Positions 16,845-49,117 are shown, counted from the stretch's first letter. The stretch is 64,000 nt of DNA from an uncultured Verrucomicrobiae bacterium (GCA_963804345.1 CAWDPX010000015.1:119147-183146); one strand, 5' to 3'. Notes: generated by a model from the sequence alone, not told the origin. Numbers and translations are program-made.

Positions 16845-17083
16845 GCGGCAGGAATGCCGTTGTTTTCCAGAACGTCGCCAACTCGTTTCGGAGGGGCGAG
16901 CTCCGCGAGTTCCATGCTTTTCCGATAAATTTAGGCGTCGTAGAACTCCGCCCTCCGAAAGCCCCGCTTGCGCATCAGCGGAGTTGCGTCAAATCTCAAT
17001 TGCTGCGTGACAAAGTCATCCGGGCACTGTCCAAACCAGCAAGAGCACCTGCCAACCGGGGCAGGGCCTGTAACGAGGTTGTT

Positions 17084-32167: not shown

Positions 32168-34138
32168 ATGGATTTCTTTGCCCAACAAGACAAGACCCGC
32201 CGTAAAACGAAGCTGCTCGTTTTCTACTTCATCCTCGCGGTGGCGGCCATTGTGGTTGCCTGCTACTTCGTTGGGCTGATCATTTTTGCCGCCGCCCAGT
32301 CACACCATTATCATTACGGCGAGCAGGCCCAGTTCGTCCTTTGGAATCCGCAGCTTTTCCTGGGCGTCACCGTCGGGGTGCTGGCCGTGATTTTCATCGG
32401 CAGCGCCTACAAAACCAATGAACTGGCCGGGGGCGGCGGCTCCGTGGCCACGTTGATGGGCGGACGGCTCGTGAATTCAAATACCACCGACCCGGACGAA
32501 CGCAAATTGCTCAACGTGGTCGAGGAAATGGCCATCGCTTCCGGTGTGCCCGTGCCGCAGGTTTATGTGCTTGATGAGGAACGCGCCATCAACGCGTTCG
32601 CCGCCGGGCATACGACCAGCGACGCTGCCATCGGCGTCACGCGCGGCTGCATCCAGATGCTTTCGCGCGACCAGTTGCAGGGCGTCATTGGACACGAATT
32701 CAGCCACATTTTGAACGGCGACATGCGGCTGAACCTCCGGCTCATCGGCATCATCTTCGGGTTGCTTTGCATCGCCACGATTGGCCGCGTCCTGTTGAGC
32801 GCGCGCAGCCGCAGCAGCCGTGACAATAATGCGTTGCCGCTTGTCGGTCTGGCCCTGGTGCTGCTCGGGGCCATCGGCGTGTTCTTTGGCCGGTTAATCC
32901 AAGCCGCCGTCAGCCGCCAGCGCGAATTTCTCGCCGATGCCTCGTCCGTGCAATTCACGCGCAATCCCGGCGGACTTTCCGGCGCGCTCCAGAAAATCGG
33001 CCAGTATGGTTACGGTTCACGCCTCGAATCCGAGCACGCCCCCGACATGTGCCACATGTTTTTCGGCAATGGTGTGGCCGAGCCATTCTTCGGCCTCCTG
33101 GCCACGCATCCGCCGATTCCTGATCGCGTCCGCGCCATTGATCCAACCTGGGACGGGAAATTTCCACCGCTGGACGAAAAGCAAATCGAAGTGGTCAAAC
33201 GCGCCGCCCTTTCCGAACTGGAACACACACCCAAGCCGATGCCGGATTTTTTCAAGACCGTGTTGGGCGGCGCCATTATTGCATCGGACAGCGCGCCCGT
33301 GCCGCCGGTTATCCGGTCGCATTCCGTCCTGCCGAATCTCGGCAATCCCACGCCGCTGCATTTGCAGTACGCCGAGAAATTGCGTGATTCGCTGCCCGAA
33401 AGCATCAAAGTCGCCGCGCGCGAACCGCTCGGTGCTGTGGCGCTGATTTACGCGATGCTGCTCAGCCCAGACGAAACGACGCGCACGACGCAACTCGCCG
33501 AACTGGCCAAACGCGTGGACCCAGCAATTCAGGGGAAAACCATCGCGTTGAATCCCGATGTTTCGGCCGCCGCCGCGCACGCGCATTTGCCGATCATCAA
33601 TCTTGCGCTGGGCGCGCTGCGGCAGTTGACCGCGGAGCAGTTCAATCAATTTTCACAGACGCTCCAATGGCTTATCGAAAGCGACGGCAAGATTGAGCTG
33701 TTTGAATTCGTGCTGCAAAAAATCGTTCTTCGCCATCTCACGCTACAATTCAGCGGGGCGCGTCCGCCGGTCGCCCAATATTACACCCTCAAGCCGCTCG
33801 TGCCGGATTGCGCCGTCGTGCTATCCGCGCTGGCCAACGTCGGCAGCAGCGATGCCGCCCAAATCGGAAAGGCCTTTGAAACCGGTGCTCCGTATCTGCG
33901 CGCGCCGGACAACGCCGATCTGGCGTTGCTGTCGGGCGAACAATGCGGCGTGGATCAGATTGACGCCGCGCTCAACCGTCTGGCGCTGGCCGTGCCGACC
34001 ATCAAGAAGAATTTGATCGAAGCCTGTGTTTACACGGTCGGTGCCGATGGCGTGATAACGGAAACCGAAGCCGAACTGCTCCGTGCCGTCGCCGACACGC
34101 TGGATTGCCCCATTCCCCCGTTTGTGCAGACGGCGTAA
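32168..34138 (+). CDS. M48-family (HtpX-like) zinc metalloprotease with a long C-terminal TerB-like region
   Basis: TM helices, HEFSHILNGDM zinc motif, ..EFLADASSVQFTRNP... C-terminal ..DGVITETEAELLRAVADTL.. resembles TerB/DjlA-N-type domains. Confidence 0.8.
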   Translation: MDFFAQQDKTRRKTKLLVFYFILAVAAIVVACYFVGLIIFAAAQSHHYHYGEQAQFVLWNPQLFLGVTVGVLAVIFIGSAYKTNELAGGGGSVATLMGGRLVNSNTTDPDERKLLNVVEEMAIASGVPVPQVYVLDEERAINAFAAGHTTSDAAIGVTRGCIQMLSRDQLQGVIGHEFSHILNGDMRLNLRLIGIIFGLLCIATIGRVLLSARSRSSRDNNALPLVGLALVLLGAIGVFFGRLIQAAVSRQREFLADASSVQFTRNPGGLSGALQKIGQYGYGSRLESEHAPDMCHMFFGNGVAEPFFGLLATHPPIPDRVRAIDPTWDGKFPPLDEKQIEVVKRAALSELEHTPKPMPDFFKTVLGGAIIASDSAPVPPVIRSHSVLPNLGNPTPLHLQYAEKLRDSLPESIKVAAREPLGAVALIYAMLLSPDETTRTTQLAELAKRVDPAIQGKTIALNPDVSAAAAHAHLPIINLALGALRQLTAEQFNQFSQTLQWLIESDGKIELFEFVLQKIVLRHLTLQFSGARPPVAQYYTLKPLVPDCAVVLSALANVGSSDAAQIGKAFETGAPYLRAPDNADLALLSGEQCGVDQIDAALNRLALAVPTIKKNLIEACVYTVGADGVITETEAELLRAVADTLDCPIPPFVQTA

Positions 34139-34197
34139 TACTTAAAATGGCAGCGCTGCAGCACGGCCCAAATCGAAGGCTGAGCGGCAGCTCAGCC

Positions 34198-35850
34198 CTA
34201 CCTGGCTGGCTCAACTTCCAGGACCACCACCGATTTCGCGGGCAACGTGGTGATAAATCCGTTGTCCGTCACCTTGAAGGCGTTGAATTCCGTTGGTTTC
34301 ACGTTGTCCGGCTGGTCGAAGGTGTTGTGCGCGGTCATTTCCGGCGCAGTCAGGATGCGGCCGGAAATTTTCTGCGCCCTGGCCCCCTGCAATTCGCAAG
34401 GGACCTCGACGGATTGATTGGGATTCAGATTGCACAGCGTGACGTGAATTTTACCGGCCTGGTCGCGCGAGGCTGAGGCGCTGACTGCCGGAATTGTTTT
34501 GTCGCCGAAGGCATAATCCACGCTTTGCAGTTCGCTGGGCAGCAGCGTGGCGTCGTGATGGACGGTGTCCATTTCAAACACCCAGTAACTCGGTGTGACC
34601 GTCATCTTTTCATTGTCAGTGAGGATCATCGCCTGGAGCACGTTGATCATCTGGGCGATGTTCGCCATCTTCACGCGGTCGGCGTGATTATTGAAAATGT
34701 TCAACGTGACGCCGGCCAGCAGCGCGTCGCGCAGCGTGTTTTGCTGGTAAAGGAAGCCGGGATTGGTCCCCGGCTCGACGTCGTACCACGCGCCCCATTC
34801 GTCCACAATCAGGCCGACTTTTTTCTGCGGATCGTATTGATCCATGATGGCGGAATGTTTGGTGACGAGTTCATCCATGACCAGCGCACGCCGGAGCGTG
34901 TTGAACCATTCCGCCTCGTCAAATTTGGTGGCGGAACCCTTGTGCGACCAGTTGCTGGTGGGCAGGGTGTAATAATGCAACGAATAGCCGTTCATCGCCT
35001 GTCCCCCATGTTTCAGTCCGTTCGCGTTCTGCTTCATCAACACTTCGGTCCAATGGTAATCGGACTCCAGCCCGCCGCTCGCGACGCGGTAGATGTTGTT
35101 GCCCGGGTAGTCTTTCACGAAGGTGTTGTAACGGCTGAAATTGTCGGCACAGAACTCCGCCGTCATGTTGCCGCCGCAACCCCAGCTTTCGTTGCCGACG
35201 GCGAAGTAGGGCACTTTCCACGGCTGTTCGCGGCCGTTTTGCCGGCGCAGGTTGGCCATGGGGGAGCTGGCCTCTGACGTCATGTATTCAACCCACTCCA
35301 TCATTTCCTGCACCGTGCCGCTGCCGACGTTGCCGCAGATGTAAGGGGCCGCCCCGATCTGGTCGCAGAAATCCATGAACTCGTGCGTCCCGAAATGATT
35401 ATTCTCCGTCACACCGCCCCAGGTCGTGTTGATCATGGCCGGACGGTTGGTGGGCGTGCCGATGCCGTCCATCCAGTGGTATTCATCGGCGAAACAGCCG
35501 CCCGGCCAGCGCACCACCGGCACCCGGATTTTCTTCAATGCGGCAACGACATCGTTGCGGATGCCGCGGGTGTTGGGAATGGGGCTGTCCTCGCCCACCC
35601 AGATGCCGCCATAAATGCAATGGCCGAGATGCTCGGAAAACTGGCCGTAAATGTTCCGGCTGATTTCCGCGCCCGGCTGGTCCGCGTGAATGACGAGCCG
35701 GTTGGTTTTCACGACGGCCGGAGGCGGCTCCGGGCTGATCGGTGGCTGTGGGCTTTGAGCAATCGGATGCTTGGGGCTGGCGCAACCCGCCAAAAGGCCG
35801 AGGCAAAAGACGCTGACAACAGGGATGACCAGAAATGGTTTCGCGTTCAT
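34198..35850 (-). CDS. abfA: GH51 alpha-L-arabinofuranosidase (lipoprotein)
   Basis: Lipobox [55 protein letters not shown]. Confidence 0.85.
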
Positions 35851-35899
35851 GGCGGTAATTCAAAACCAGATTGAGCCACGCGCAAGCATTCTTTTTAGC

Positions 35900-35986
35900 A
35901 AGGCAAACTTCGAGTGGATCGACGTCTTTTCCAACCGGGAGCGGTTCCACAGCGCACCCGGTTACAAATCCCCGGTAGTGTCCTAA
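35900..35986 (+). mobile_element. Relic of an IS3-family transposase C-terminus
   Basis: ..SKANFEWIDVFSNRERFHSAPGYKSPVVS* matches the conserved ..YIE.FYNR.R.HS.LGY.SP..F tail of DDE integrase-core transposases. No upstream part is present. Confidence 0.55.
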
Positions 35987-36338
35987 TTTGAAATTAAGAA
36001 CTTCACACTTTTGGGTTATTGGGCTTTGATTGAGGCATGAAAGAAAACATCAAATCGGCAATCTTGGGCATTTGTCTCATTATTGCTGTTTTCGTTTACG
36101 TGCGCGGCACACGCTACCAAGCTGTTGCAACTCAAAACGGCTTCGGTGGAATGGTTATCTATGACCGAATCACTGGTGAACGCAAGTGACCTGAACTTGA
36201 AGTCCGTTTCCCCAAATTTTCTCTATGCATTGCGGCATTCGTGCCCGCTGCCTTTTTGCCTCCCCGTTTTGCTAAACCAGCATTGAGCCGCTCTCGTAGC
36301 CTTTTCCATCTTGATTGATGTGACATATTGGTAATGCG

Positions 36339-36569
36339 TTAAATAAATTCGTCAAAGTCGCCCCTCTTGCGTTTTTTGGCTATTGCGCGCTGTTCCCGCT
36401 TGGTTTTCACATTCCCCAATCCCGGTAGAAGTTCTATTGCCCGGTTGGCGGCTTTTACGGCATCTTGTTCTTCAACAGCCGATTTGTAAAATGGGTCTGA
36501 TTCAACCATTTTTCGGTCATACGGTGAAAAACTCTTAAAGAACTGATTCATTTCCTCATCGAAATTCAT
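36339..36569 (-). CDS. Small hypothetical protein
   Basis: 76-aa ORF in an AT-rich patch. No motif recognised. Confidence 0.35.
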   Translation of the reverse strand: MNFDEEMNQFFKSFSPYDRKMVESDPFYKSAVEEQDAVKAANRAIELLPGLGNVKTKREQRAIAKKRKRGDFDEFI

Positions 36570-36654
36570 TTTTTTGTCCTCACATCATTGACGATTTGAG
36601 TACGCACGGCAGTTAAATCAAGCCACGAGTTCTGATTGTTACAGAGAATTGGCC

Positions 36655-37929
36655 TTACTCAAAACGCGCGGGTTGTCCGGTGGTGGCCAGCACTGCGTGC
36701 CAGATGGAGTCGTTGGGATCCACACGTTTTACCTGTTTGGCCAGCATTTCAATGGGCACATGGATGAACCGGTCGTGCAGCAACCCAATCACCAAGCCGG
36801 TCTTGCCCGCCATCGCGGCATGCACGGCATGACGGGCATATTGGTCGCACAGAATCGCGTCTTCCGCATCGGCGGGCACGCTCCGGATGATATAGCTCGG
36901 TTCCAGGTAACGCATCACCACGGGAATTTTTTCCGCCCGGAAGTAAGATTCGATCTTTTCACGGAGGAACGGGCCGATGTCCCTGAGTTTGATGTTTCCC
37001 GAAGCGTCACGTTCCCCGCCTTTGTTTTCCAGCAGGTCCTGTCCGGTGCCTTCGGCCACCACGATGACTGCGTGCGCCCGTTTCAACGTGCGTTTCTTCA
37101 GTGCGTTGAGGAACCCGCCTTCGCCTTCCAGCTTGAACGGAATTTCCGGGATCAGACAAAAGTTCACCTCCTGGCTGGACACCGTGGCTTCCGCGGCGAT
37201 GAACCCGGCGTGCCGCCCCATCAATTTTACCAGGGCGATGCCGTTCTGAACGCTGTGAACCTCCGTGTGGGCGCAGGTAATGACCCGGGTGGCTTCCTGC
37301 ACCGCAGTCTGGTAGCCAAAAGTGCGCGAAACATAAGGCACATCGTTGTCAACGGTCTTCGGAACACCCACGACCGCCAGCGCGTGACCGCGCTTTTGTG
37401 CCTCCTGAAAAAGCTTGTAACCCCCGTGTTGTGTGCCGTCACCACCGACGACGAACAGGATGTTCACATCGCGTTTAATGAGATTCTCCACCGCCCGGCT
37501 GATGTCCACCGGACCGCGCGACGTGCCGAGTACCGTGCCGCCTTCCTTGTGGATGTCGTCCACGAGGTCAGCGTTGAGCACGATTGGCTCCAGTTCGCTC
37601 GCCGGATCAAGTCCGTGGTAACCGTCGCGGAAGCCCAGCACTTGCTTCACGCCGTAGGTATGGTGCAGTTCCAGGAAGGCGGAGCGGATGACGGTATTCA
37701 TGCCGGGGCAAAGTCCGCCGCAGGTTACAATGCCGGCACGAGTGGCTTTGGGATCAAAGAAAAGTTTTTCGCGCGGGCCAGCCATCTCAAAAAGGAGTTC
37801 CTCCGATGGCGTGACGCCCGGCGTCCGCACAATTTGCAACGGTATGTGTGCCTCGTCACTGACCGAGTGTCGAATCGGCGACGCGAAGCGGGCCGGGCCG
37901 AGCAAGGTGATGTTCGTTGAGCTATTCAC
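36655..37929 (-). CDS. pfk: 6-phosphofructokinase (PfkA family, long ATP/PPi type)
   Basis: AGIVTCGGLCPGMNTVIR, FVVGGDGTQHGG, GVPKTVDNDV, MGRHAGFIA. Proposed GTG start at 37929, because the 25 codons upstream in the tracked ORF lie over the pheT-tail relic. Confidence 0.85.
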   Translation of the reverse strand: MNSSTNITLLGPARFASPIRHSVSDEAHIPLQIVRTPGVTPSEELLFEMAGPREKLFFDPKATRAGIVTCGGLCPGMNTVIRSAFLELHHTYGVKQVLGFRDGYHGLDPASELEPIVLNADLVDDIHKEGGTVLGTSRGPVDISRAVENLIKRDVNILFVVGGDGTQHGGYKLFQEAQKRGHALAVVGVPKTVDNDVPYVSRTFGYQTAVQEATRVITCAHTEVHSVQNGIALVKLMGRHAGFIAAEATVSSQEVNFCLIPEIPFKLEGEGGFLNALKKRTLKRAHAVIVVAEGTGQDLLENKGGERDASGNIKLRDIGPFLREKIESYFRAEKIPVVMRYLEPSYIIRSVPADAEDAILCDQYARHAVHAAMAGKTGLVIGLLHDRFIHVPIEMLAKQVKRVDPNDSIWHAVLATTGQPARFE

Positions 37930-37990
37930 GCACCGTTGCCTGTAATTGCGACTTGAACGCCTCCACAATTTTCGTGTGCAGCGTTGCCTG
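37922..37990 (-). repeat. Relic copy of the pheT 3' end including its stop codon
   Basis: The reverse strand reads ..TLHTKIVEAFKSQLQATVRE*, against the real pheT end ..AAHTKIVEAFKAQLKATVRE* (41271-41330). 48/60 nt are identical by hand alignment. Confidence 0.75.
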
Positions 37991-38022
37991 TTGTCCACAA
38001 CCAAATCTTGACGGCAGAACTT

Positions 38023-41000
38023 TCATTCGTCCGCAGTATTTGCAGCCTGGTTGCCAAGCAACTCCTGGGCGGCACGAACAAATCCATTTTGGCCGATTGC
38101 CTTGCCCGGGGTGATGTTTTCCTCCAGTTCCTGCAACCTAAAACGGTATTCCATATCCCGGTCTTGTTCGCTGGCTTGCGCCGCCTGCTTTTCAACTTGT
38201 GCCTTGCTGGCCGGCAACGGATAAAGACTTTCGGGCTTGGCCGGGCGCTTCCCGGCGGCGATGGCAACATTGCTCCAGAGCGCGGCCAGATCGGAGACAT
38301 TCTCAAACGACGGATGGGTGTGCCGGCCCAGCGGATCCAGTCGAAGCAGATTGAAAACCACGGCATCGCGTTCCGGCGCGGGTTGAAAAACATGAGAACT
38401 GATGCCTTCGATTTTGACCCAGGCATTGAGATAATCCGGATCCAGTCTGACCGCCGCGTGATAATTGGTCAGCGCCTCCGGATAACGCCCTTCTTCTTCC
38501 CGCAGATAGCCGAGCAGATAATGCACCTGCGGCTTATTCGGCGTTTTTTGGGCCAGTTCGGTGAACACCTTTTCGGCAATGCCTTGCGCCCGTTCACCAT
38601 CAAACGCGCGCTCGCACCCGAAACAATAACTCTCCATGCGGCCAAACTGGTCAGGCATCAACTCGTAGGCGCGACGGTAATGTTCCTCCGCCTGCTGGTG
38701 CAATCCCATGTCCGACAATTGCACGGCCAGCCGCGCATGGATGCAATAGGCGTCCGCAAAACGGTTTAATGAATCCTGATACATGGCCACGGCCCGTTTG
38801 AGCAGGCCGGCGGCGTGAAATTGGTCGGCTAATTCCGCTTGATGCACGGATTGAACAACGCCACGCAAAGTTGCTGCCTCATTGGTGTCGCCCCGGGCGG
38901 CGCGGATCTCTGCCAGTTCGACATAGGCGCGGATGCGGTCGCCGGGACCTTCCTCGCCATCCGTGGGATCAATGGTAATGGCCTGGCGGGCGGCTTGTTC
39001 GGCTTCCGCCAAATGCTGGTGGGTGCGCAACCAGTGTGCCTTCCAGATCAACGGTCGTTCCTCGAACTGGTCCCGCGCAAACAAAGCATCCAGTTCGGCC
39101 GGGACGTTTTCATCATCCAGTGAGAGCAGCAATTCATAAAGCCGGTCGCAGCCGGGGGATTGATCGAACAGTGGGATGAGCAGTTTGCGCGCTTCCGCCG
39201 GGCGTCCGGTTTTGGCCAGCGCCGCAGCGGCGTAGTAGCCTGCCGGCACGTGCTGATCGGAATAAACCGGGTTCAAATCAGCCAGGTCTTTGACGCCCCA
39301 ATACGGCGCCTGATCGAACAGCTGCAACACGTCGGCGTCTCTTCCAGCATGGTGATAAAGCCGGGCCAGCGATGTCAGAATTTGAGCGGCGGGAGTGGAG
39401 CGTCCTTCGTAACCGTACATTCGCGGGTCGGCCTTCTTCGAGACGGCGTTGGACAAGGTTGTGGCCAGAACCATTTCCGCCTCCGGTCCCCGATTGATAT
39501 CCTCCAAAAGAGTTGCCAACGACAGTGCGGTATTGTTTCCCCACGGAGAATAATCCTGTTCATCCTGTTTTTGAACAGCCGCCCTGGTTGCAGTAATGCC
39601 TTCCTCCAGCCATTCCGGACGATCGAGGAGGTGGCCGATTTGCGCCAGCTTCAGTGCCAGGTCTCCGCGGCTTTCACGCTCGTAGTGGGCTGAGGCTGAA
39701 ACCGGTTCATTGGTTTGCATCAAGCGGCGAAGTTCGGTCACACCGGCCTCGACTTCGTCGTTGGCCAGCAACGCCTGATACAACAATTGTTGCAGATGCA
39801 GCCGTTGGCCCTTGCTCAGGCCGGGCTTGGAAATGGCGGTCTGAACCAGCTTGACCATTTCCGCGGTTTGACCCGCGTGCGCCGCCACCTGCACATACTC
39901 CTCCCAGAAAGGCAGATCCGGATTTTGCTGCAACAGTTCATGGAAAAAACCATTGAGCTGGCCGGCGAAACCGGCGCGTTCCATCTGCCGGACGGCTTCA
40001 TTCGGGAAGTAAGCGTCATTTTCCTTCTCAAATTGTCCGGCTACCGCCACGGCATCAGCCGTGCGCTCATGAGCTATCAGGCCAAGCAGATAATAAATCT
40101 GGGCGCTCTTCTTTTCATAGTCGCCGGAAGCCTCGGTCGGAAGCGGCATTGAAGGCAGGTCGGAAACGGCTGCCGGAGGTTCGTTGGTTTCGGGTTTGGC
40201 AAAGCGTTTTTCCATCGCTTCATACAAATCCACCGACTCCAGCGAATTGACCAGCGACCACTGCGGTGTTTTTAATTCTTTGACCAATTCCAACGCCAGT
40301 TTCTGCGCGAGCTTGTCGGTGGCCGTGCCGGTTTCAATGTTTAATTGGGCTTTGGATTTGACCAGGGCGTGCCGGAGAAATGCCTCGGCCTTTTCCGGTC
40401 CGACCAGCGGAACGAGGTCCGGGACTTGAAGACTGGATTGATAACGATAGTCTTCCCCGGATTGTTGGGCCGCCAGTTTCCGGTCCAATGCCTGCAGCAC
40501 GGCATCGGGATTGTCCATTGTGGCCATCAGGGAACTGCTTAGTTCCTCAAACAGGGAATTGTAAAAGTAGGCCTGCCGGGTTTTGGCCTTGGCGGCGAGG
40601 GCTTCCAAGGCGGCGATGTCTTCCCGCCGCTTGGTCGTGTCACCCAGAAGGGTGTGAGCCAGCAGCCGCAAGCCAAGCTTTTGCAACGACTGAGCGCCTT
40701 CGCCCGCCGGACGCGCTTCGATGGCCTTGCCCAGTTCCGGCCAACTGGAAGGCGGAGGCAGCGCCTCGACCAATTCCTCCGGTTGGATGGGATGGGACAT
40801 CCCGCCCTGTTGGCCATAATTGGCGGGCGTCTCATTCAGTTGCAGCAGGCGATCCACCAGTGCCAGCCATTGTTTCGCCGCTTCGGCCGGCGCCAGGCTG
40901 GCGGACTGTTGCTTGAAAGCCTTCAAATCCTCGCGCAGTTGTGACGTCGGCGATGGTTTTTCCTCCTTCGATTTCGGTTGGTTGCTGCCTTCTGCCGCCT

Positions 41001-41130
41001 GACGAAGAACGGCATCCGCTCCCTCATAATTGGTTGCCGACGTCGCTTCCGCCGTTGTGGTCCAAACCCAGGCGCCCACCATACACAACACGACACTGGC
41101 AACGATTTTGCGGCAGATTTTGATGTTCAT
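38023..41130 (-). CDS. Large secreted TPR-repeat protein
   Basis: Signal/anchor MNIKICRKIVASVVLCMVGAWVWTTTAEA. Multiple TPR-like units near the C-terminus (..AEEHYRRAYELMPD.., ..ALTNYHAAVRLDPDYLNAW..). Confidence 0.7.
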   Translation of the reverse strand: MNIKICRKIVASVVLCMVGAWVWTTTAEATSATNYEGADAVLRQAAEGSNQPKSKEEKPSPTSQLREDLKAFKQQSASLAPAEAAKQWLALVDRLLQLNETPANYGQQGGMSHPIQPEELVEALPPPSSWPELGKAIEARPAGEGAQSLQKLGLRLLAHTLLGDTTKRREDIAALEALAAKAKTRQAYFYNSLFEELSSSLMATMDNPDAVLQALDRKLAAQQSGEDYRYQSSLQVPDLVPLVGPEKAEAFLRHALVKSKAQLNIETGTATDKLAQKLALELVKELKTPQWSLVNSLESVDLYEAMEKRFAKPETNEPPAAVSDLPSMPLPTEASGDYEKKSAQIYYLLGLIAHERTADAVAVAGQFEKENDAYFPNEAVRQMERAGFAGQLNGFFHELLQQNPDLPFWEEYVQVAAHAGQTAEMVKLVQTAISKPGLSKGQRLHLQQLLYQALLANDEVEAGVTELRRLMQTNEPVSASAHYERESRGDLALKLAQIGHLLDRPEWLEEGITATRAAVQKQDEQDYSPWGNNTALSLATLLEDINRGPEAEMVLATTLSNAVSKKADPRMYGYEGRSTPAAQILTSLARLYHHAGRDADVLQLFDQAPYWGVKDLADLNPVYSDQHVPAGYYAAAALAKTGRPAEARKLLIPLFDQSPGCDRLYELLLSLDDENVPAELDALFARDQFEERPLIWKAHWLRTHQHLAEAEQAARQAITIDPTDGEEGPGDRIRAYVELAEIRAARGDTNEAATLRGVVQSVHQAELADQFHAAGLLKRAVAMYQDSLNRFADAYCIHARLAVQLSDMGLHQQAEEHYRRAYELMPDQFGRMESYCFGCERAFDGERAQGIAEKVFTELAQKTPNKPQVHYLLGYLREEEGRYPEALTNYHAAVRLDPDYLNAWVKIEGISSHVFQPAPERDAVVFNLLRLDPLGRHTHPSFENVSDLAALWSNVAIAAGKRPAKPESLYPLPASKAQVEKQAAQASEQDRDMEYRFRLQELEENITPGKAIGQNGFVRAAQELLGNQAANTADE

Positions 41131-41270
41131 AAGTGTTCCATTTGTGGGTTGTAATTGAATGTGTAAAATCCTTATAGCTCTTGGGGAAATGACTTTCAAC
41201 CAAGATTTTGCAGGATGCCGTCAATCCGCCCGTCACGTTTGCCTGCCATCGCTACATTGAAACGGTTGGT

Positions 41271-43844
41271 TTACTCCCGCACCGTTGCCTTCAACTGCGC
41301 TTTGAACGCTTCCACGATTTTCGTGTGCGCGGCGTTGGCTTCGGCGTCGGTCAGCGTTTTGTCCGCGGCGCGATAGGTGAAGGCGTAGGCCAGGCTTTTT
41401 TGGCCCTCGGGAACGTTTTTGCCGCGGAACACGTCGAACAATTCCACCGCTTCCAGGTTCGCCGGTTTGGTCTGCTTCACCACCTGCAAAACGGCGTCGT
41501 GCGTCGTGGCTTCGGGCACAATCATCGCCACGTCCCGGCGGATGGCGGGAAACGCGGGCAATGGCTTGAATGACTTGGCCGGATTCCGCCGCGCCAGCAG
41601 CAAATCCAGATTCAATTCCGCCAGCAGCACGGCGTCGCGCAAATCATATTTCTTCGCCAGCGCGGGCAGCAATTGACCGAACTCGCCAACTTGATTTTTG
41701 CCCTGCAAAATGACGGCCGATTCGAGAAAGAGCGCGGTGCTTTCCGCCTGGCGCGCAAACGTCATTCCGCGCAAACCGAATTGCTCGAAAAATTCCTCCA
41801 ACACACCTTTCAAATCGCAGGCGTCAAATTTCGCGTCGCGTTCGCTGCCGCTCCAGAAGGGCAGGGCACGCTGGCCGGTGAGCGCGAGAGCTAGGCGGGG
41901 TTTTTCAAGGAAGAGGTGTGAGTCGGCATTTGGTCCTTCCTTTGTGCCGAACACCTGCCCGATTTCAAACAGCGCCACGTCGTAATTCTTCCGGCTCAAG
42001 TTATGTCGCAACGAATGAATCAATCCCGGCAACAAACTGGGACGCAGCACGTCCATGTCCGAACTCAACGGATTTGCCAGTGTAACCAATTCGGCATTCG
42101 GCATTCGGCATTCGGCATTCGCTATTAGCGTCTGCCCTTGCGCTTCGTTCAGGCCCAGCCCGCTCAAAATCCGGCGCGCTTCTGCCAGGACGTCGTGTGT
42201 CGCGTCGAATGCGTTCGTGCCTAGCGCGCCGCGCGGCGGAGTGGACGGAATTTTGTCCACGCCATGCAGCCGGGCGATTTCTTCGATCAAATCCACTTCA
42301 CGTTTCAAGTCCACGCGGAACGTGGGAATCCGAAACGTGACCGGTTCCGGCGCGGCGTTGGCGCCAACTGGCCGCGCCTTGTGACCGGCGGTTTTCAAAC
42401 CAAGCTGGCCGAGATAAAACTCAATTTCTTCAGGCCGAAGCTCAATGCCGAGCAGTTCGTTCACCTTGTGATGCCGCAGCGTGATTTGCTTCGGCTCGAC
42501 CGGTTTCGGGTAGGCGTCCACGACGCCTTCGGCGAGTTGGCCGCCGGCGGTTTCGAGAATCAATTGCGCGCACCGCGCGCCGGCCCAGTCGTTGATGTCA
42601 ATGTCCGCGCCGCGCTCGAAACGATAGCTGGCGTCGGTGCGCAGTCCCAGCGTCTTGCTCGTGCGGCGGATGTTCGTGGGCGAGAAATAGGCGCTCTCGA
42701 TGAGCACGTCCACGGTGTTGTCCTTGATCTCGGAATTCTGCCCGCCCATGACGCCGGCCAGCGCGATGCCTTTTTGTTCATCGGCGATGAGCAGATTGTC
42801 CGAAGTGAGCTTGTGTTTCTGGCCGTCGAGCGTGATGAACTCCTCGCCGGCCTTCGCGCGGCGGACGACGATGGTTGGCTTGCAGCCGCCGTCGTCAGAC
42901 GGCGCATTCTTTCCATCCGAAGTTTGCGCCGACTCACGTCGGCGGCTACGGGAAATAAGGTGATAATCAAACGCGTGCAGCGGCTGGCCGATTTCGAGCA
43001 TCACGTAATTCGTCACGTCCACGACGTTGTTGATGCTGCGGACGCCGACTTTTTCCAGGGTGGTTCGGAGCCAGTCCGGGCTGGGGCCAATCTTCACGCC
43101 TTTCACGACACGAGCGGTGTAACGCGGGCAAAGGTCTGGGTCATCGAGGCGGACGCTGACCAAATCCGCCGTTTTTTCGGAGGGGCGAGTTCCACGAGTC
43201 CCTAAATTTGCTTCGGAATCAGGGCGTCGCGGAGCTCCACCCTCCGAAACGTTTGGCACCTTCAACGCATTTCCCGTCACTGCCGCGATCTCGCGGGCGA
43301 TGCCGATGACGCTGTTCCAGTCCGACCGGTTGGGCGTGATTTCGAGATCGAACACCACGTCGCCGCCGGTGCGGCCGAGATATTCGGCGAACGGCTGGCC
43401 GATCTTGGCGTCCGCCGGCAGAATGAGCAGGCCGTCCACCTTGTCCGGCAGGCCGAGTTCCTGCGGCGAGCACATCATGCCGTGGCTGGTGATGCCGAAG
43501 ACTTTTCGTTCCTTGATGACGAACGGTTCCGTGTCGCCGGGCTTCAGCGGCAGGGCGAAGTTCGGCAGGATGAGCGGCACCTTGTCGCCGGGTTTGTGGT
43601 TTTGCGCGCCGCAAATGATGACGCGCTCGCCCTTGCCGTCGTTGACCTTGCAGACGGAGAGCTTGTCCGAGCCGGGCACGGGGTCGCGCGTAAGGATTTG
43701 GGCGACGACGATGCCGTCGAACTCGCCGCCGGTTTTATGGACGCCCTCGACTTCGAGGCCGAGCATGGTGAGCCGCTCCGCCAGTTGTTCGGGCGACCAG
43801 TCGAAATCAACGTATTGTTTGAGCCAGTTAAGGGTGAGTTTCAT
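41271..43844 (-). CDS. pheT: Phenylalanine--tRNA ligase beta subunit, with several short in-frame insertions
   Basis: MKLTLNWLKQYVDFDWSPEQLAERLTMLGLEVEG, tRNA-binding domain GSDKLSVCKVNDG, B3/4 and B5 regions, FDVFRGKNVPEGQKSLAY. Confidence 0.9.
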   Translation of the reverse strand: MKLTLNWLKQYVDFDWSPEQLAERLTMLGLEVEGVHKTGGEFDGIVVAQILTRDPVPGSDKLSVCKVNDGKGERVIICGAQNHKPGDKVPLILPNFALPLKPGDTEPFVIKERKVFGITSHGMMCSPQELGLPDKVDGLLILPADAKIGQPFAEYLGRTGGDVVFDLEITPNRSDWNSVIGIAREIAAVTGNALKVPNVSEGGAPRRPDSEANLGTRGTRPSEKTADLVSVRLDDPDLCPRYTARVVKGVKIGPSPDWLRTTLEKVGVRSINNVVDVTNYVMLEIGQPLHAFDYHLISRSRRRESAQTSDGKNAPSDDGGCKPTIVVRRAKAGEEFITLDGQKHKLTSDNLLIADEQKGIALAGVMGGQNSEIKDNTVDVLIESAYFSPTNIRRTSKTLGLRTDASYRFERGADIDINDWAGARCAQLILETAGGQLAEGVVDAYPKPVEPKQITLRHHKVNELLGIELRPEEIEFYLGQLGLKTAGHKARPVGANAAPEPVTFRIPTFRVDLKREVDLIEEIARLHGVDKIPSTPPRGALGTNAFDATHDVLAEARRILSGLGLNEAQGQTLIANAECRMPNAELVTLANPLSSDMDVLRPSLLPGLIHSLRHNLSRKNYDVALFEIGQVFGTKEGPNADSHLFLEKPRLALALTGQRALPFWSGSERDAKFDACDLKGVLEEFFEQFGLRGMTFARQAESTALFLESAVILQGKNQVGEFGQLLPALAKKYDLRDAVLLAELNLDLLLARRNPAKSFKPLPAFPAIRRDVAMIVPEATTHDAVLQVVKQTKPANLEAVELFDVFRGKNVPEGQKSLAYAFTYRAADKTLTDAEANAAHTKIVEAFKAQLKATVRE
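42090..42122. repeat. Tandem heptanucleotide repeat (TCGGCAT x4 plus a partial unit) inside pheT
   Basis: Direct reading. Translated on the minus strand as ANAECRMPNAEL. The same GAATGCC units recur at 61443-61460. Confidence 0.8.
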
Positions 43845-43848
43845 AGTA

Positions 43849-44310
43849 CTAGCTTGTGAGAATCTCGAATATTAACTCGCGCGGCTTGAGATTGAGGTGA
43901 CGAGCTAAATCTTTTAGCGATCTAATGTCCAACTCGCCGTTGCAGTAATTCACAGAAATGGCCTGACTGCCGACGATCAGTTTGAGGTGGTCCCCTTTTG
44001 ATGTTTCGAGTCTGAAGCCGCTCCTTCGAAAATAACGTTCGCATTTATGAATCTTTGGCCCTGGTAGTGCCTCTTTGATGTTTGCAGCAGTTTCTAGCGT
44101 GAGTGACTCGCTAGGAACAAGATCGTCGCGATAATCCAACGACACACCGTTACGAAGCACTCTTGTGTTAAACGGTGAGAAGCCGAACTCGGCAACTAGG
44201 TTTTCATCAAACAGCAAATCAACCACATTAAATCCTGGCTTGATGTAAAATGGCGACGTTTGTGTCCCCATCCTTACTATGACAGGCTTTGTGTAATCGA
44301 ATTGTTGCAT
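43849..44310 (-). CDS. Hypothetical protein with a HicA-like C-terminal domain
   Basis: The C-terminal ..FRRSGFRLETSKGDHLKLIVGSQAISVNYCNGELDIRSLKDLARHLNL aligns by eye to HicA (..GSNHLKLRFHGRRSVMPRHPCDEIKEPLRKAIIKQLGL). The N-terminal 85 aa are unassigned. The stop lies 4 nt before the pheT ATG. Confidence 0.45.
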   Translation of the reverse strand: MQQFDYTKPVIVRMGTQTSPFYIKPGFNVVDLLFDENLVAEFGFSPFNTRVLRNGVSLDYRDDLVPSESLTLETAANIKEALPGPKIHKCERYFRRSGFRLETSKGDHLKLIVGSQAISVNYCNGELDIRSLKDLARHLNLKPRELIFEILTS

Positions 44311-44329
44311 AAATCTTTTTTGCCTTAGG

Positions 44330-44386
44330 TTAAAACAGTTTCAAAAACCGCATGTCGTTCTCGTAAAAGAGGCAGATGTCGTTGAT
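44330..44386 (-). repeat. Relic copy A of the pheS 3' end including its stop codon
   Basis: The reverse strand reads ..INDICLFYENDMRFLKLF*, against the real pheS end ..INDIRLFYENDVRFLKQF* (45488-45544). 50/57 nt identical. Confidence 0.75.
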
Positions 44387-44618
44387 GCAGTCGCCAAGCT
44401 CCGTCAGGAGCGGCATCTTTGTAGCCAGCACGCCACCCACCACCCAAGCCCCGTCGGGGCGGCATATTCCAACAACCACAAATTTTTGACCGGCGTTGTT
44501 CATTCGTTGGCGATGTCGCTCCTGACGGAGCTTTTTTCATTTTATTTGTTTCGTTCTACAAATATTTCGCTCCTAACGGAGCTTCGATCAGGGCTCGACG
44601 GAGTCTCGCCCCACCCAA

Positions 44619-44653
44619 TTAAAACTGTTTCAAAAAACGCATGTCGTTTTCGG
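44619..44653 (-). repeat. Relic copy B of the pheS 3' end including its stop codon
   Basis: The reverse strand reads ENDMRFLKQF*. 30/35 nt are identical to 45488-45522. It lies 4 nt after the carbonic anhydrase stop and in the same frame. Confidence 0.7.
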
Positions 44654-44657
44654 AAAT

Positions 44658-45437
44658 CTATTTGTCGTAAAAATGAACCTCGCCGGTGGCGAGGTCGTAC
44701 ATGCCGCCGACCAAGCCGATCTGGCCGTTGTCAATCATCTCGCGCAGGATGGGGCTGCGTTCGCGGATTTGTTGCAGGACCAACTGCACGTTCATCTCGG
44801 ATACCTTGTCCACAAATTGCAGGTTCTTTGAATTGCGCGGCTGGCCGTCGGCGGGGACGTGTTCGATGGCCGGTTTGATTTTGGCGAGCAGGCCGGTGAG
44901 GTTGCCCAGTTCCACGCTGTCCACGGCGCCCTTGATGGCGCCGCAATTGGAATGGCCGATGACGGCAATCAATTTCGCGCCCGAAACCTTGCAGGCGAAT
45001 TCCAGGCTGCCGAGGATGTCGTCATTCAGCACGTTGCCGGCGACGCGCGCGCTGAAAATGTCGCCGATGCCCTGGTCTAAAACAATTTCGATGGGCTGGC
45101 GCGAATCCAGGCAGCTCAGGACCACGGCAAAGGGATACTGGCCGGAGGCGGTGGTTTTGACGTCCGCCGGCTGATTGCGAACCAGCGGGTGGCCGGCCAC
45201 AAACCGGGCATTGCCGGCGCGCAATTCGTCGAGCGCTTTTTGTGGCGTCATGGCCGCCTGCGATTCCTTGGTGGGCGGAGCCACCGCGGCACCAGTGGTG
45301 CAAGCCATACCCGACATCGGGCAAGTCTTTGCCGGCATCGAGCAGCAGGATTGTTTGGGAGAATGACAGCCTGCCGCGAGCAACACGGCGACGGCCAGAC
45401 CGGCAAACAGCGAGAGGCGATTCAATGGAGCTTTCAT
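44658..45437 (-). CDS. Beta-class carbonic anhydrase (lipoprotein)
   Basis: Lipobox LLAAGC. VLSCLDSRQPIEIV and VIGHSNCGAIKGA match the beta-CA Zn ligands (C-x-D-x-R, H-x-x-C). Confidence 0.85.
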   Translation of the reverse strand: MKAPLNRLSLFAGLAVAVLLAAGCHSPKQSCCSMPAKTCPMSGMACTTGAAVAPPTKESQAAMTPQKALDELRAGNARFVAGHPLVRNQPADVKTTASGQYPFAVVLSCLDSRQPIEIVLDQGIGDIFSARVAGNVLNDDILGSLEFACKVSGAKLIAVIGHSNCGAIKGAVDSVELGNLTGLLAKIKPAIEHVPADGQPRNSKNLQFVDKVSEMNVQLVLQQIRERSPILREMIDNGQIGLVGGMYDLATGEVHFYDK

Positions 45438-45487
45438 TTGTTTTCGATGTCGCTCCTAACGGAGCTTTAAGGTGCCAAATTGGAACC

Positions 45488-46546
45488 TTAAAATTGTTTC
45501 AAAAACCGCACGTCATTTTCGTAAAAGAGCCGGATGTCGTTGATGCCGTAACGGATCATGGCGATGCGCTCGATGCCGAAGCCGAACGCCCAGCCGGTCC
45601 AGATTTCGGGGTCGTAGCCGACGTTCTCGAACACCTGCGGATGCACCATGCCGCAGCCGGCGATTTCCAGCCAGTCCTTGCCCAGCTTCTTCACGAGCGC
45701 ATTGCTGAAATCAATCTCGAAGCTCGGCTCGGTGTAGCTGAAGTAGTGCGGACGGAAACGGATCTTCACATCCTTGCCCAGCAATTCCTTGAAAACGAAT
45801 TCGACCGTGCCCTTGAGGTCGCCCACGGTGACGCCCTTGTCCACGTAAAGCCCTTCGATCTGCTGGAAGGTTGGATTGTGCGTGGCGTCGGCGTTGTCGC
45901 GGCGATAAACGCGGCCGGGGACAATAATGCGCACGGGCGGCGGCTGCGATTTCATCACGCGGATTTGCACGGATGACGTATGCGTTCGGAGCAAAAGTGA
46001 TTGACGTCCGCCCTCGCCCCGGCCCTCTCCCCCGGGAGAGGGAGAATTATCCGCCGATCCACTTGCAAGGTAGAAAGTATCCTGGGTATCGCGTGCCGGA
46101 TGGTCGGCGGGGGTGTTGAGGGCGTCGAAACAATGATATTCGTCCTCGATCTCCGGGCCGTCGGCGACGGCGAAGCCGAGCTTGCGGAAGGCGCGGACGA
46201 TGTCCTCGGTGACCTGCGTGAGCGGATGAAGCTTGCCGAGCGCGCGGCGGCGTCCGGGCAGGGTGAAGTCGGTCGGCTCCTTGGGCAGGGCGGCCTTGAG
46301 TTCGAGTTCGGAGCGGCGTTCGGCGAGCGCGGCTTCGAGGGCGATTTTGGCGGCGTTGATGAGTTTGCCGGCGGCGGGCTTTTCCTCTTTCGAGAGCGTG
46401 CCGAGTTGTTTCATCAGCGCGGTGAACTTGCCGTTGGCGCCGAGCCAGGCGCCCTTGGTCTGTTCGAGCGCGGCGGGGTCGGGCGCCGCCTTGAGTTCGG
46501 CGAGCGCGGTTTGTTTCAATGGTTCAATTTCGTTTAGCAGAGACAT
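45488..46546 (-). CDS. pheS: Phenylalanine--tRNA ligase alpha subunit, with an in-frame repeat insertion
   Basis: HPLTQV, PADHPARDTQDTFY, LLRTHTSSVQIR, FRPHYFSYTEPS, GCGMVHPQVF, AFGFGIERIAMIRYGI. Confidence 0.9.
   Translation of the reverse strand: MSLLNEIEPLKQTALAELKAAPDPAALEQTKGAWLGANGKFTALMKQLGTLSKEEKPAAGKLINAAKIALEAALAERRSELELKAALPKEPTDFTLPGRRRALGKLHPLTQVTEDIVRAFRKLGFAVADGPEIEDEYHCFDALNTPADHPARDTQDTFYLASGSADNSPSPGGEGRGEGGRQSLLLRTHTSSVQIRVMKSQPPPVRIIVPGRVYRRDNADATHNPTFQQIEGLYVDKGVTVGDLKGTVEFVFKELLGKDVKIRFRPHYFSYTEPSFEIDFSNALVKKLGKDWLEIAGCGMVHPQVFENVGYDPEIWTGWAFGFGIERIAMIRYGINDIRLFYENDVRFLKQF
46005..46062. repeat. Single arm of the CCCTCGCCCCGGCCCTCTCCCCCGGGAGAGGGAGAA repeat family, in frame in pheS
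   Basis: Translated as ..NSPSPGGEGRGEGGRQ.. between the conserved DTFYL and LLRTHTS blocks. Confidence 0.7.
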
Positions 46547-46569
46547 TTAAGGGAGTGTTGAGCTTCGCG

Positions 46570-46661
46570 TTTCAAGTTTCAAGTTTTCAGTTTTCAGCCA
46601 AAGCAAAACGGGCGGACCATCGCTGGCCGCCCGCTGAAAACCTGAAACTGAAAACCTGAAA
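46570..46661 (-). terminator. Nested hairpin between rplT and pheS: GC-rich terminator-like stem-loop plus U-rich tract, enclosed by about 28-nt complementary simple-sequence arms
   Basis: The minus strand reads TTTCAGGTTTTCAGTTTCAGGTTTTCAGC-GGGCGGCCAGCGATGGTCCGCCC-GTTTTGCTTTG-GCTGAAAACTGAAAACTTGAAACTTGAAA. Confidence 0.5.
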
Positions 46662-46664
46662 CGG

Positions 46665-47048
46665 TTACGCCTTTGCCAGAGTGGCGGCGGGCTTGGCCTT
46701 TAGCGCGTTCTTGGCGATGGTCACCAGTTCGCCAAACGCGGCGGCATCGGTGGCGGCGAGGTCGGCGAGCACCTTGCGGTCGAGCGCGCACTTGGCGGCC
46801 TTGAGGCCTTCAATAAAGCGGCTGTAGGTGAGGCCGGCGGCCCGGGTGGCGGCGTTGATGCGCACCTGCCAGAGATAACGGAAGGTGCGTTTTTTGACGC
46901 GGCGGTCGCGGTAGGCGTATTGGCGGCCGTGGTCAACGGCGTCGGAGGCGTAGCGGTAAAGGTTGGAGCGGCGCGCACGGTAGCCTTTGGCGGCTGTGAC
47001 CATCCGTTTGCGGCGTTTGCGGGAGGCGGCGGCGTTGGTAACTCGCAT
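46665..47048 (-). CDS. rplT: 50S ribosomal protein L20
   Basis: MRVTNAAASRKRRKRMVTAAKGYRARRSNLYRYA..AYRDRRVKKRTFR.LW..RINAA. Confidence 0.95.
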   Translation of the reverse strand: MRVTNAAASRKRRKRMVTAAKGYRARRSNLYRYASDAVDHGRQYAYRDRRVKKRTFRYLWQVRINAATRAAGLTYSRFIEGLKAAKCALDRKVLADLAATDAAAFGELVTIAKNALKAKPAATLAKA

Positions 47049-47085
47049 GAATCAGTTGAAAGTTAATGGTTGAAAGTTGAGAGCC

Positions 47086-47295
47086 TCAATGGCTGAACGG
47101 CAGATTTTGCGTGATGCGATACGCGTCGGTGGGATCCACCGTGGCTGAGCCACGGAGATGGCGCCGGCGCTTGGGATTCTTGGTCTGGGCCAGGTGGCGG
47201 ATGCCGGCGTGGTGGAACCGGACTTTGCCTGTGCCAGTGATCTTGAACCGCTTGGCCACGGACTTTTTCGTTTTGATGCCTTTGGGTCGTCGCAT
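47086..47295 (-). CDS. rpmI: 50S ribosomal protein L35
   Basis: MRRPKGIKTKKSVAKRFKITGTGKVRFHHAGIRHLAQTKNPKRRRHLR. Confidence 0.9.
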   Translation of the reverse strand: MRRPKGIKTKKSVAKRFKITGTGKVRFHHAGIRHLAQTKNPKRRRHLRGSATVDPTDAYRITQNLPFSH

Positions 47296-47374
47296 AAATC
47301 TTAATTACAAAAGAGCGCAAACTATACGCGGCGACAGGCGCTGAGGCAAGCGCCATTTTTGAATTAATCAAGAG

Positions 47375-49117
47375 GGGCGGCGGACAAAATTCTTCATCAG
47401 GCGGACAGGGAGAGAGTGTCATTGCGTTTGGCGTGTTGATTGAGCCGGTGTTTCCAGAACGGGTCCCAGCGCCGACTGCTGTGGATGCAACGCAACGCCA
47501 GCACGTTTTCTGCACCGGGCAGGGACCAGAACATGCCTGATTGTTTGCAGCGCGCGCCGATGACCGTCTTGCAGCCAGCCTCCACGACGCCCGAACCGAT
47601 AAAGTAACCTGCGGCGCGAAAGGAGCCATACTGCATGCGCTGGATATTGCGCTCAAAATAACCCAATTCCTCCCCCACGACTTGCGCTTGCGGTTGACCG
47701 AGGCAAGCTTGGCGGGTTTCTTTAATCAGCGACTCGACCTTGTCTTTGAGCAATCGCCTGGCCCAACGTCGCTGCCGGGTTTTGTGGTCCGGATGGTTTT
47801 TGCCCAGCAGGGCGTCGAGTACTCGGCCCGCGTGTTCCAGCGCATGATAAAAGTCCACGACCTGCACACAGCCTTTGAAGCAGTCTTTGCCCATGTTCTC
47901 CAAACCGGTGGCGCCGTCGATCAAGAGCACGGTTTTTCCTGCTGTGGCCAAGCCTCGGCGCAAGGCTTCCTGGCGCAGAATGGGGCCAAACTGGTCAATG
48001 GATTGGAAGCTGGAAACATAGGTGGTGGATTCATGGTCCCGCACGGGATGGCCTTTTTCATCCGTCCGATGCTGCGTAAAAACACAGCCCAGATAAACCT
48101 GGCGGGTCTTGGCCGTGCCGTCGGGTTGTTTGCCCGCCCTTCCGGCCAACTCCTTGGGGCGCATGGGCACACCGGTGCCATCGGCGCTGACATACATAAT
48201 GGGCGCGTCGCACCGGCCGGGTTGGGCCTGGCGCTGCTGCCAAACTTGCGCGTCCTGGCCCACTCGTTGCACGACGCGCTGGATTTGCCGGGCCGACACC
48301 TGGATGGCACCGGTTTCGGCCAGATGCCGCTCCGCTTTTTGGTAGCCTGTCTCATCGGCGCCCTCCAAACAGATCAGCCGGGCCAAAGCGGGCGTGTAGC
48401 CAACCTCCAGACCCAGCGCCGCATCGGCTGGATAGTGCCCCTGTTTTTTGCCCTCATGGTAGTAGTAGTCGCGCTCCAGTTGGAAGGTGCCAAACAAACC
48501 GTCCACCCGCAGGCACTCCCGTCCTTTGCGCTGCTGGCCGGGTGCGGGCTGATAGGCGGCATCGACACGGTCGGCCGCTTGTTGGAGCAGCCATTGCACC
48601 AGCGCATTGGCGGGCTTGAAGATGGCGGTGCGCACCAGCACTTCCAACTGCTGCACCGCCAAGCCGTTGGGCGTTTGCCCGCCAAAGTGCGCCATCAACT
48701 GTTGGATTTCCTGCTCTTGGGCCAGGAGGAGTTGTGGCGTGGGGTCTTTTTTTTTGCGCCCGCCACTCGCTCGGCGCGGGTTTTTTCCACCATGAGTTGC
48801 ACGTATTGCGCCATCAGTTCCTGGACCTGACGGTAGCCATCGATGGCGGCCTTGAGGTCGGGCACCTGTTCCGGGGGCACGTAGCGGGAAACGTTGCGGC
48901 CATTTTCATAGCATTGGTGATTATAGTAGGGCCCTTGCGGCCCTTGGCGAAGCACACTGATGGTGCCGCGATCCAGACGCTGGATTTGGGCGATGTCGTT
49001 GAGGAGCGATTGCGGAGTGGATTTGGTATTCATGGCCGGAAGTATATGTGTATGCCATATACCAAGGCAATAAAAAAAAGGCTAAAAACTGATTTTGAAG
49101 AATTTTGTCCGCCGCCC
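47375..49117 (-). mobile_element. Complete ISKra4-family-like insertion sequence (1743 bp) with 22-bp perfect terminal inverted repeats and a 9-bp target-site duplication
   Basis: IRL GGGCGGCGGACAAAATTCTTCA (47375-47396) and IRR TGAAGAATTTTGTCCGCCGCCC (49096-49117). Direct repeat AATCAAGAG at 47366-47374 and 49118-49126. Confidence 0.85.
47397..49033 (-). CDS. IS transposase encoded as two overlapping ORFs (112 aa plus 433 aa) joined by a -1 frameshift at A_AAA_AAG
   Basis: OrfB ..YVSADGTGVPM.., ..LLIDGATGLEN.. and ..GSGVVEAGCKTVIGARCKQSGMFWSLPGAENVLALRC..RWD.FW match my recollection of ISKra4 transposases. The OrfA frame reads GCA AAA AAA AAG at 48757-48746; the -1 frame continues KKDPTPQLLLAQEQEIQQLMAHFGG. 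Confidence 0.75.

Follow-up and report, generated by a model that had tools for sequence, protein, structure and literature searches.

For presence/absence loci, one-sided integration with a homologous joint on one side and an illegitimate joint on the other has been proposed (Touzain et al. 2010, PMC2884548), and experiments in Acinetobacter, Streptococcus pneumoniae and Pseudomonas stutzeri have demonstrated homology-facilitated illegitimate recombination. Insertions that lack mobility genes and lie between direct target repeats of more than 30 bp are also documented (Furuta et al. 2010, PMC2853133). A further class comprises elements bounded by attL and attR at the 3' ends of protein-coding or tRNA genes, together with their recombinase-less derivatives. 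Insertion with long target duplication was reportedly described by Nobusato et al. in 2000. Here, a repeat that shares features with all of these was analysed in a stretch of 64,000 nucleotides (nt) from an uncultured Verrucomicrobiae bacterium (GCA_963804345.1 CAWDPX010000015.1:119147-183146), hereafter the window. The last codons of pheT, encoding the phenylalanyl-tRNA synthetase beta chain, occur there twice in direct orientation: once at the functional gene end and once, as a relic, just before the 6-phosphofructokinase gene pfk, with a single gene for a secreted TPR-repeat protein (hereafter TPR) in between (Table 1). The window (WIN) was compared with about 40 related loci (labelled L###) obtained by scans with pheT and pfk and belonging to uncultured Verrucomicrobia, largely from peat and bog metagenomes.

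The pheT-tail scar is probably of a known kind, homology-assisted illegitimate recombination, and can also be described as a long target duplication. With the former it shares one colinear flank, a single novel junction, the lack of mobility genes and a presence/absence polymorphism among close relatives; it differs in that the joined DNA is a resident housekeeping gene order rather than foreign DNA, and in that the event is read from uncultured metagenome contigs and not from identified parents. Likeness to long target duplication lies in a direct repeat of more than 30 bp (64 nt) over a gene 3' end, an insert below 20 kb, a single copy in relatives and the lack of a transposase or integrase. 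In contrast to that class, what the window has here is no restriction-modification system but a conserved TPR gene at its ancestral site, and one end of the supposed insert is no junction; restriction-modification-like and toxin-antitoxin cargo was found only at the neighbouring pheS-pheT junction of relatives. As with attL/attR elements, the gene stays intact, empty sites exist and multi-copy arrays occur at pheS. Unlike these elements, the locus has no recombinase and no fixed crossover point, gene 5' ends are duplicated too, and the supposed element is a resident gene.

The duplicated pheT tail and the start of pfk

The pheT product ends in AAHTKIVEAFKAQLKATVRE and the segment 37922-37990 reads TLHTKIVEAFKSQLQATVRE, each followed by a stop codon. 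A repeat search of the window returned a direct repeat of 64 nt (37916-37979 and 41265-41328) with 81% identity, the two copies lying 3349 nt apart. In an ungapped alignment anchored at the stop codon, 37922-37984 agrees with the final 63 nt of pheT at 49 positions, the next best match elsewhere in the window, on either strand, being 32/63. In 200 first-order Markov sequences generated from the base transitions of the window, the maximum was 33.1 +/- 1.1 (largest value 37). The observed score is thus about 14 standard deviations above the null, and a chance origin of the repeat is excluded. An nhmmer profile of pheT tails matched 37923-37986 as well (E = 1.5e-11). The direct duplication of the pheT tail proposed by the first-pass annotation, which was made from the sequence of the window, is therefore real, and its statement that a single gene with its upstream region lies between the copies holds as well: only the TPR gene (from its ATG start) and a 140-nt spacer upstream of it are found there.

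Over the 20 codons shared by the two copies (stop included) there are 10 differences, eight synonymous and two conservative. The functional tail ends in CGGGAGTAA, like that of relatives without pfk directly after pheT; the relic ends in CGTGAATAG, from which pfk takes its GTG start and in which the former pheT stop survives. As for its length, a longer original relic (about 211 nt before the stop) was considered after a local match in the spacer of L095/L096 (z = 5.7) and then dropped. The nhmmer comparison favoured a colinear extension to about 90 nt only over the 211-nt version, an extension to 90-95 nt being tentative, and the corresponding match in L181 was not significant against three of four pheT alleles. 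An integron gene cassette array, with structured attC sites at the cassette ends, was rejected, there being no integrase, no special fold of the relic RNA (no better than shuffled sequence, z = 0.06) and no Rfam match in 33000-49000. The promoter scan gave one 9/12 match inside the relic (37997-37968), which is at chance level; the terminator scan found none, and no relics of the pfk tail were found in a screen that left the M48 peptidase gene tail outside.

The relic stop TAG (37924-37922) overlaps a GTG at 37929-37927, from which pfk runs for 424 amino acids (aa). A database protein identical to it (100%) has this length, as do most of the closest pfk homologues, in agreement with the start that had been proposed for the gene. 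An AGG-rich stretch precedes the GTG. The gene carries a piece of pheT because its GTG start and the region just upstream sit inside the last codons of pheT. In L085, L095 and L096, the last 30 nt before the pfk GTG match the intact-tail consensus at 29/30, 27/30 and 24/30 positions, respectively. In the distal half of the relic, these loci are frameshifted and conservation falls to roughly 60-65%; preservation of the 30 nt next to pfk is consistent with a constraint on the initiation region of pfk. An open reading frame (ORF) of 34 codons crosses the relic and overlaps its neighbours at both ends: the ATG with the TPR stop (ATGA), the stop with the pfk GTG. The frame ending at the relic stop is open over 50-71 codons, with in-frame starts, in all four relic types (window, L085, L095 and L096) despite their indels. 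The 34-codon ORF may represent an upstream ORF for translational coupling, in which case translation of pfk would be coupled to that of TPR.

Two gene orders and their putative merger

Two gene orders found among the relatives correspond to the two sides of the scar. In the first, order (i), pheT is followed by a spacer, TPR and the M48 peptidase gene, with neither pfk nor relic. It occurs in the deeper relatives L171, L173 and L175, whose TPR products are 81, 72 and 63% identical to that of the window, in step with pheT (78, 74 and 71%). Across Verrucomicrobia, full-length TPR homologues grade continuously between 100% and 37% identity. Homology between the pheT-TPR spacers of the window and of order (i) begins a few bases past the pheT stop and takes in a promoter-like TTGAAA-17-TATAAG motif just upstream of TPR. 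Both spacer and motif are present in the pfk-less L173 and in all TPR-bearing loci; a consensus promoter scanner made no call on the motif, whose second hexamer has G as its last base. On the other side of the gene, the first 55 nt or so past the TPR stop are common to the window and pfk-less relatives, the TPR 3' flank being homologous to that of L171 (no pfk), L085, L095 and L096, with a deletion in the window type relative to L085. Given the order (i) relatives and the colinearity of both spacer and flank, TPR is a conserved verrucomicrobial gene in its native position downstream of pheT.

In the second arrangement, order (ii), pheT overlaps pfk by 8 nt (GTGAATAR) and the M48 gene follows. 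It was found in L081-84, L093, L097, L099-103 and the more distant L105-107, and its junction always ends in GTGCGTGAATAR. From the relic through pfk to M48, the window is colinear with these pheT/pfk relatives. A lone pfk homologue (79%) was seen at another locus in L177.

Wherever TPR stands between pheT and pfk, a relic precedes pfk. This holds for the window, L091/92/168, the L085 group, L095 and L096. The functional tails of these loci, which end in CGGGAGTAA or CGGGAATAA, closely resemble those of order (i) genomes (CGGGAGTGA, CGGGAATAG and CGGGAAGCATGA), and their relics end in CGTGAATAR, as in order (ii), where CGT-G gives the pfk GTG. Since pheT and pfk share the 8-nt overlap in many relatives, the relic descends from such a junction. 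The comparison with related genomes suggested in the first-pass annotation thus gave the expected pheT directly joined to pfk. The ancestral overlap that it postulated stands as the source of the relic, but a new insertion of TPR, native in L171, L173 and L175, into it is not supported. Given the colinearity with order (i), the only novel junction is the one that connects the TPR 3' flank to the pheT tail. The left boundary of the relic is the same in every locus with TPR and pfk, pointing therefore to one event.

On this evidence, the arrangement in the window was probably created by one old recombination that merged the pheT-TPR-M48 and pheT/pfk-M48 orders, with one illegitimate joint and homologous exchange on the other side. 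In order (ii), the start codon of pfk and probably also its ribosome-binding region lie inside the last pheT codons, so that TPR and a functional pfk can be kept together only in a recombinant with a piece of the pheT tail before pfk. Whether the homologous side lay in pheT or in pfk/M48 would depend on the identity of the recipient; on the illegitimate side, the joint would connect the TPR 3' flank with a point in pheT about 65 nt, or perhaps as much as about 95 nt, ahead of the stop. No dedicated recombinase would have been involved. Comparison across the relatives shows the later history: the pfk-distal half of the relic degenerated in some lineages and the 30 nt next to the GTG were preserved, and various relatives have since lost TPR or pfk. 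In the lineage of the window, gene conversion homogenised relic and functional tail before a short allelic patch replaced part of the latter.

The sister loci of the window, L091/92/168 (TPR 94.5%, pfk 97%), document these last steps. Their tails and relics are 93% identical (in L092, over 57 nt) and share a 35-nt identical block with substitutions found in no other lineage, a similarity that indicates gene conversion. Between the window and L092, identity is 97% on both sides, the drop to 83% being confined to one 150-nt bin, which covers the pheT tail and about 55 nt of adjoining spacer; an allelic patch of about 115-150 nt has overwritten the functional pheT tail of the window. Because of this later patch, the two copies in the window are different functional alleles rather than a gene and its decaying copy, which accounts for their 81% identity and mostly synonymous differences. 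The longest identical run between copies is 13 nt in the window (35 nt in L092), the copies having since been altered by gene conversion and allelic replacement, and the event is an old one. Decay of the relic in place was rejected: the synonymous-only differences were first read as a sign of a relic of foreign origin or under selection, and the sister genomes show that it was the functional tail that had been replaced.

The presence of TPR is patchy on the pfk tree, which fits repeated loss by recombination between the repeats, or allelic exchange. L182 retains a decaying relic and about six pfk codons, the rest of pfk being lost, and L181 has kept pfk, with an ATG at codon 5 and no recognisable relic. 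In L104, a different secreted-protein gene lies between pheT and pfk, without relic or repeat; pfk codons 1-5 are gone and a new ATG stands at codon 5. Another pfk leader, AAGTCAGCGYATGAAC, is shared by L104 (2440-2500) and L181 (10720-10790), its ATG corresponding to codon 5 of the other loci and giving a 420-aa product with the N-terminus MNITLLG. This N-terminus is typical of pfk in other phyla and may represent either the state before the fusion or a secondary repair. In the closest reference genome (L001, 12625-12941; pheT 83%), pheT is directly followed by the arabinofuranosidase gene, with neither TPR nor pfk, an arrangement suggesting that this lineage has deleted TPR, relic and pfk. 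The pheT tail of L001 ends in AGGGAGTAA, of the non-overlap type, and repeat-like sequence follows it.

Several points weigh against the merger of two gene orders or limit its reach. Its direction is undecidable: TPR could have entered a pheT/pfk genome, or tail and pfk a pheT-TPR genome, and outgroups of both orders stand at similar distance (L105/106 vs L171 and L173). No microhomology is readable at the joint, in a region that has decayed and undergone lineage-specific deletions, the parents being unavailable. The first origin of order (ii) is not explained by the merger, and the leader of L181 and L104 (AAGTCAGCGYATG) could be an older state, adding steps to the history. The constraint on the 30 nt before pfk is drawn from only three related, decayed relics. 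Finally, all relatives are metagenome contigs, so that the rest of each genome, where a recombinase acting in trans might be encoded, is out of view.

Competing mechanisms and the pheS-pheT junction

Long target duplication is an unlikely, though by no means negligible, alternative to the merger. A TPR segment would have entered a pheT/pfk genome, and in the course of insertion a stretch of about 65-95 nt from the pheT tail of the recipient would have been duplicated on either side, for instance through repair of a widely staggered break or through template switching, a class described for restriction-modification genes. A direct repeat of more than 30 bp around the insert, a single-copy empty site in relatives and the lack of mobility genes correspond to the definition given in PMC2853133. 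However, the supposed insert begins exactly at the pheT stop and is from there orthologous to pfk-less relatives, which looks like homologous exchange and not like a second junction. The 93% identity of the copies in L092 would suit a recent duplication, yet carriers of this junction show a TPR divergence of 85-95%, and gene conversion is the better explanation. Further support comes from the adjacent pheS-pheT junction, where toxin-antitoxin and restriction-modification cargo is in each case followed by a pheS-tail relic of 37-75 nt; here, the three pheS-tail copies of L081 differ at several synonymous sites, arguing against local copying.

This neighbouring junction is a hotspot of its own. 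The first-pass annotation had announced further duplicated tails in the operon, and the pheS tail is indeed present three times in the window (Table 1). The ancestral pheS-pheT spacer measures 45-56 nt (L105-107), and the junction is variable in the window (44330-45549), L001, L081, L092, L093, L181 and L182. In relatives, the cargo includes carbonic anhydrase, VapBC/PIN pairs, restriction-modification genes, DUF4062, methyltransferases and nucleotidyltransferase-like genes. Behind many of these modules stands a pheS-tail copy of the above size, and the same modules recur in different orders across genomes. The pairing of carbonic anhydrase with a short pheS-tail relic is also found in L001 and L081, and L001 and L004 contain relics of the pheT 5' end. 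Differences between pheS relics and functional tails are mostly synonymous, as expected if the relics were former functional tails of various alleles.

A broader reading, which we regard as rather doubtful, would treat all of these repeated gene ends (pheS tail, pheT tail and pheT 5' end) as portable homology sites of a recombinase-free cassette system. Modules such as carbonic anhydrase, VapBC, restriction-modification and DUF4062 would be bounded by 37-75-nt ends of essential genes, RecA would loop them out, exchange them and re-insert them between genomes, and the sites would stay recombinogenic through gene conversion by the functional gene. In its favour, module orders and combinations differ among genomes, and the relics are better conserved than expected of neutral DNA.

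A special hairpin site was also considered and rejected: GCTCCNNNNGGAGC occurs only four times in 64 kb, always between pheS and pheT and never at the pheT/pfk junction. One pair of copies forms the inverted ends of a miniature inverted-repeat transposable element (MITE)-like sequence of about 140 nt (44393-44537; ends AAGCTCCGTCAGGAGCGACATC and GATGCCGCTCCTGACGGAGCTT at 44398-44411 and 44518-44531), and further copies of the end motif lie at 44569-44582 and 45452-45465. The MITE-like element abuts the second pheS-tail relic, and the same element and relic are found in L093.

Site-specific integration, of which the first-pass annotation had taken the repeat to be the footprint, is highly improbable. 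A circular TPR cassette with an attP mimicking the pheT 3' end would have been integrated by a tyrosine or serine recombinase now located elsewhere or lost, leaving the two copies as attL and attR. A direct repeat of a gene 3' end around an insert, combined with empty sites, is the classical footprint of such an event, and the pheS-tail arrays, with up to four copies and mobile-looking cargo, resemble tandem accretion at att sites. Nonetheless, no integrase or transposase was found by Pfam in or beside the pheS-pheT-pfk block of about 15 distinct related loci whose genes were examined, the cargo ORFs of five further loci having been inspected only by eye; an enzyme encoded at a distant locus could still act in trans. 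TPR and its own spacer occupy the same position in relatives that lack pfk and relic, and L104 carries different cargo at the same junction without any repeat. A fixed crossover is not apparent either: pheS relics start 37, 54, 60, 70 or 75 nt before the stop, and pheT 5'-end relics cover 61-90 nt. The longest identical run in the window, the 13 nt given above, is a further point against it, although both copies have been altered since the event.

The remaining idea, that the segment before pfk is no relic but part of a longer pfk N-terminus or a chance similarity, has next to no probability and can be taken as refuted by the comparisons made here: the pfk frame does run upstream through the segment (a 449-aa ORF with a TTG start, 36655-38004), but the closest homologues have 424 aa, with a few shorter, fewer than 10 of the 120 listed slightly longer and none near 449 aa, so that no conserved extension of the kind named in the first-pass annotation was seen, the same bases encode the pheT C-terminus in a different frame in relatives, and the repeat match far exceeds the null.

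If the merger is the right account, the locus illustrates gene gain and loss in nature within a compact essential operon, rplT-pheS-pheT-pfk, in which mobile-element machinery has no part, and shows that a duplicated gene tail need not imply an integrase. Where the start of a gene lies inside the last codons of the previous one, a rearrangement that keeps both must duplicate the overlap. Repeat identity is a poor guide to age, gene conversion and small allelic patches resetting the similarity: for one and the same junction it is 81% in the window and 93% in the sister genomes, and cousins have a relic that has decayed. The pheS-pheT junction appears to be a good site to study recombinase-free gene gain in uncultured peatland Verrucomicrobia.

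Surrounding genes and repeated elements

Table 1. Coordinates of genes, repeat copies and associated features in the 64-kb window
Feature	Position	Strand	Basis
rplT	46665-47048	minus	
pheS	45488-46546	minus	Pfam
Functional pheS tail, reference copy of the second repeat family	45488-45549	minus	repeat search; Pfam for pheS
beta-carbonic anhydrase	44658-45437	minus	
pheS-tail relic 1, ~37 nt, directly after the carbonic anhydrase gene	44620-44656	minus	nhmmer
pheS-tail relic 2, ~70 nt, upstream of orf153, abutting the MITE-like element	44330-44399	minus	repeat search; nhmmer
orf153	43849-44310	minus	
pheT, phenylalanyl-tRNA synthetase beta chain, 857 aa	41271-43844	minus	ORF; Pfam B3_4, tRNA_synthFbeta, FDX-ACB, B5, tRNA_bind
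Functional repeat copy, pheT tail and 6 nt past the stop	41265-41328	minus	repeat search; tail comparison across relatives
pheT-TPR spacer, 140 nt, with promoter-like motif TTGAAA (41199-41194)-17-TATAAG (41176-41171)	41131-41270	minus	conserved in relatives
TPR protein, secreted, TPR-repeat, 1035 aa from ATG	38023-41130	minus	Pfam TPR families
TPR 3' flank up to the junction; putative illegitimate joint at its downstream end	37991-38022	minus	homologous to flank in L171, L085, L095, L096
34-codon ORF through the relic	37922-38026	minus	ORF listing; suggestive only
pheT-tail relic, secure over ~65 nt, forming the pfk 5' leader	37922-37990	minus	repeat search, null simulation, nhmmer
pfk, ATP-dependent 6-phosphofructokinase, 424 aa, GTG start	36655-37929	minus	Pfam PFK, E = 3.9e-59
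Arabinofuranosidase	34198-35850	minus	
M48 peptidase, convergent	32168-34138	plus	

An exact lookup of the window pheT matched no record. Low pheT identity between close relatives results largely from in-frame repeat copies and other indel patches. One repeat-element copy inside pheT (43175-43249) matches 16886-16960 and has inverted ends, and another inside pheS (46004-46046) matches 22015-22057 in inverted orientation; both are in frame and encode stretches such as SEGGAPRRPDSEANLGTRGTRPSEK and SPSPGGEGRGEGG.

Downstream of pfk, the arabinofuranosidase gene stands before M48 in only some relatives. The gap between pfk and this gene (35851-36654) is about 800 nt long in the window vs 96 nt in the sister locus L092. 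The extra DNA is AT-rich, with small ORFs of 76, 55 and 50 aa, and no gene-end repeat was seen in it. Just upstream of the rplT-pheS operon lies a 433-aa ORF on the minus strand (47397-48698) with a match to Pfam UPF0236, which we take to be a transposase-like family; in relatives L082 and L173, other genes occupy this position.

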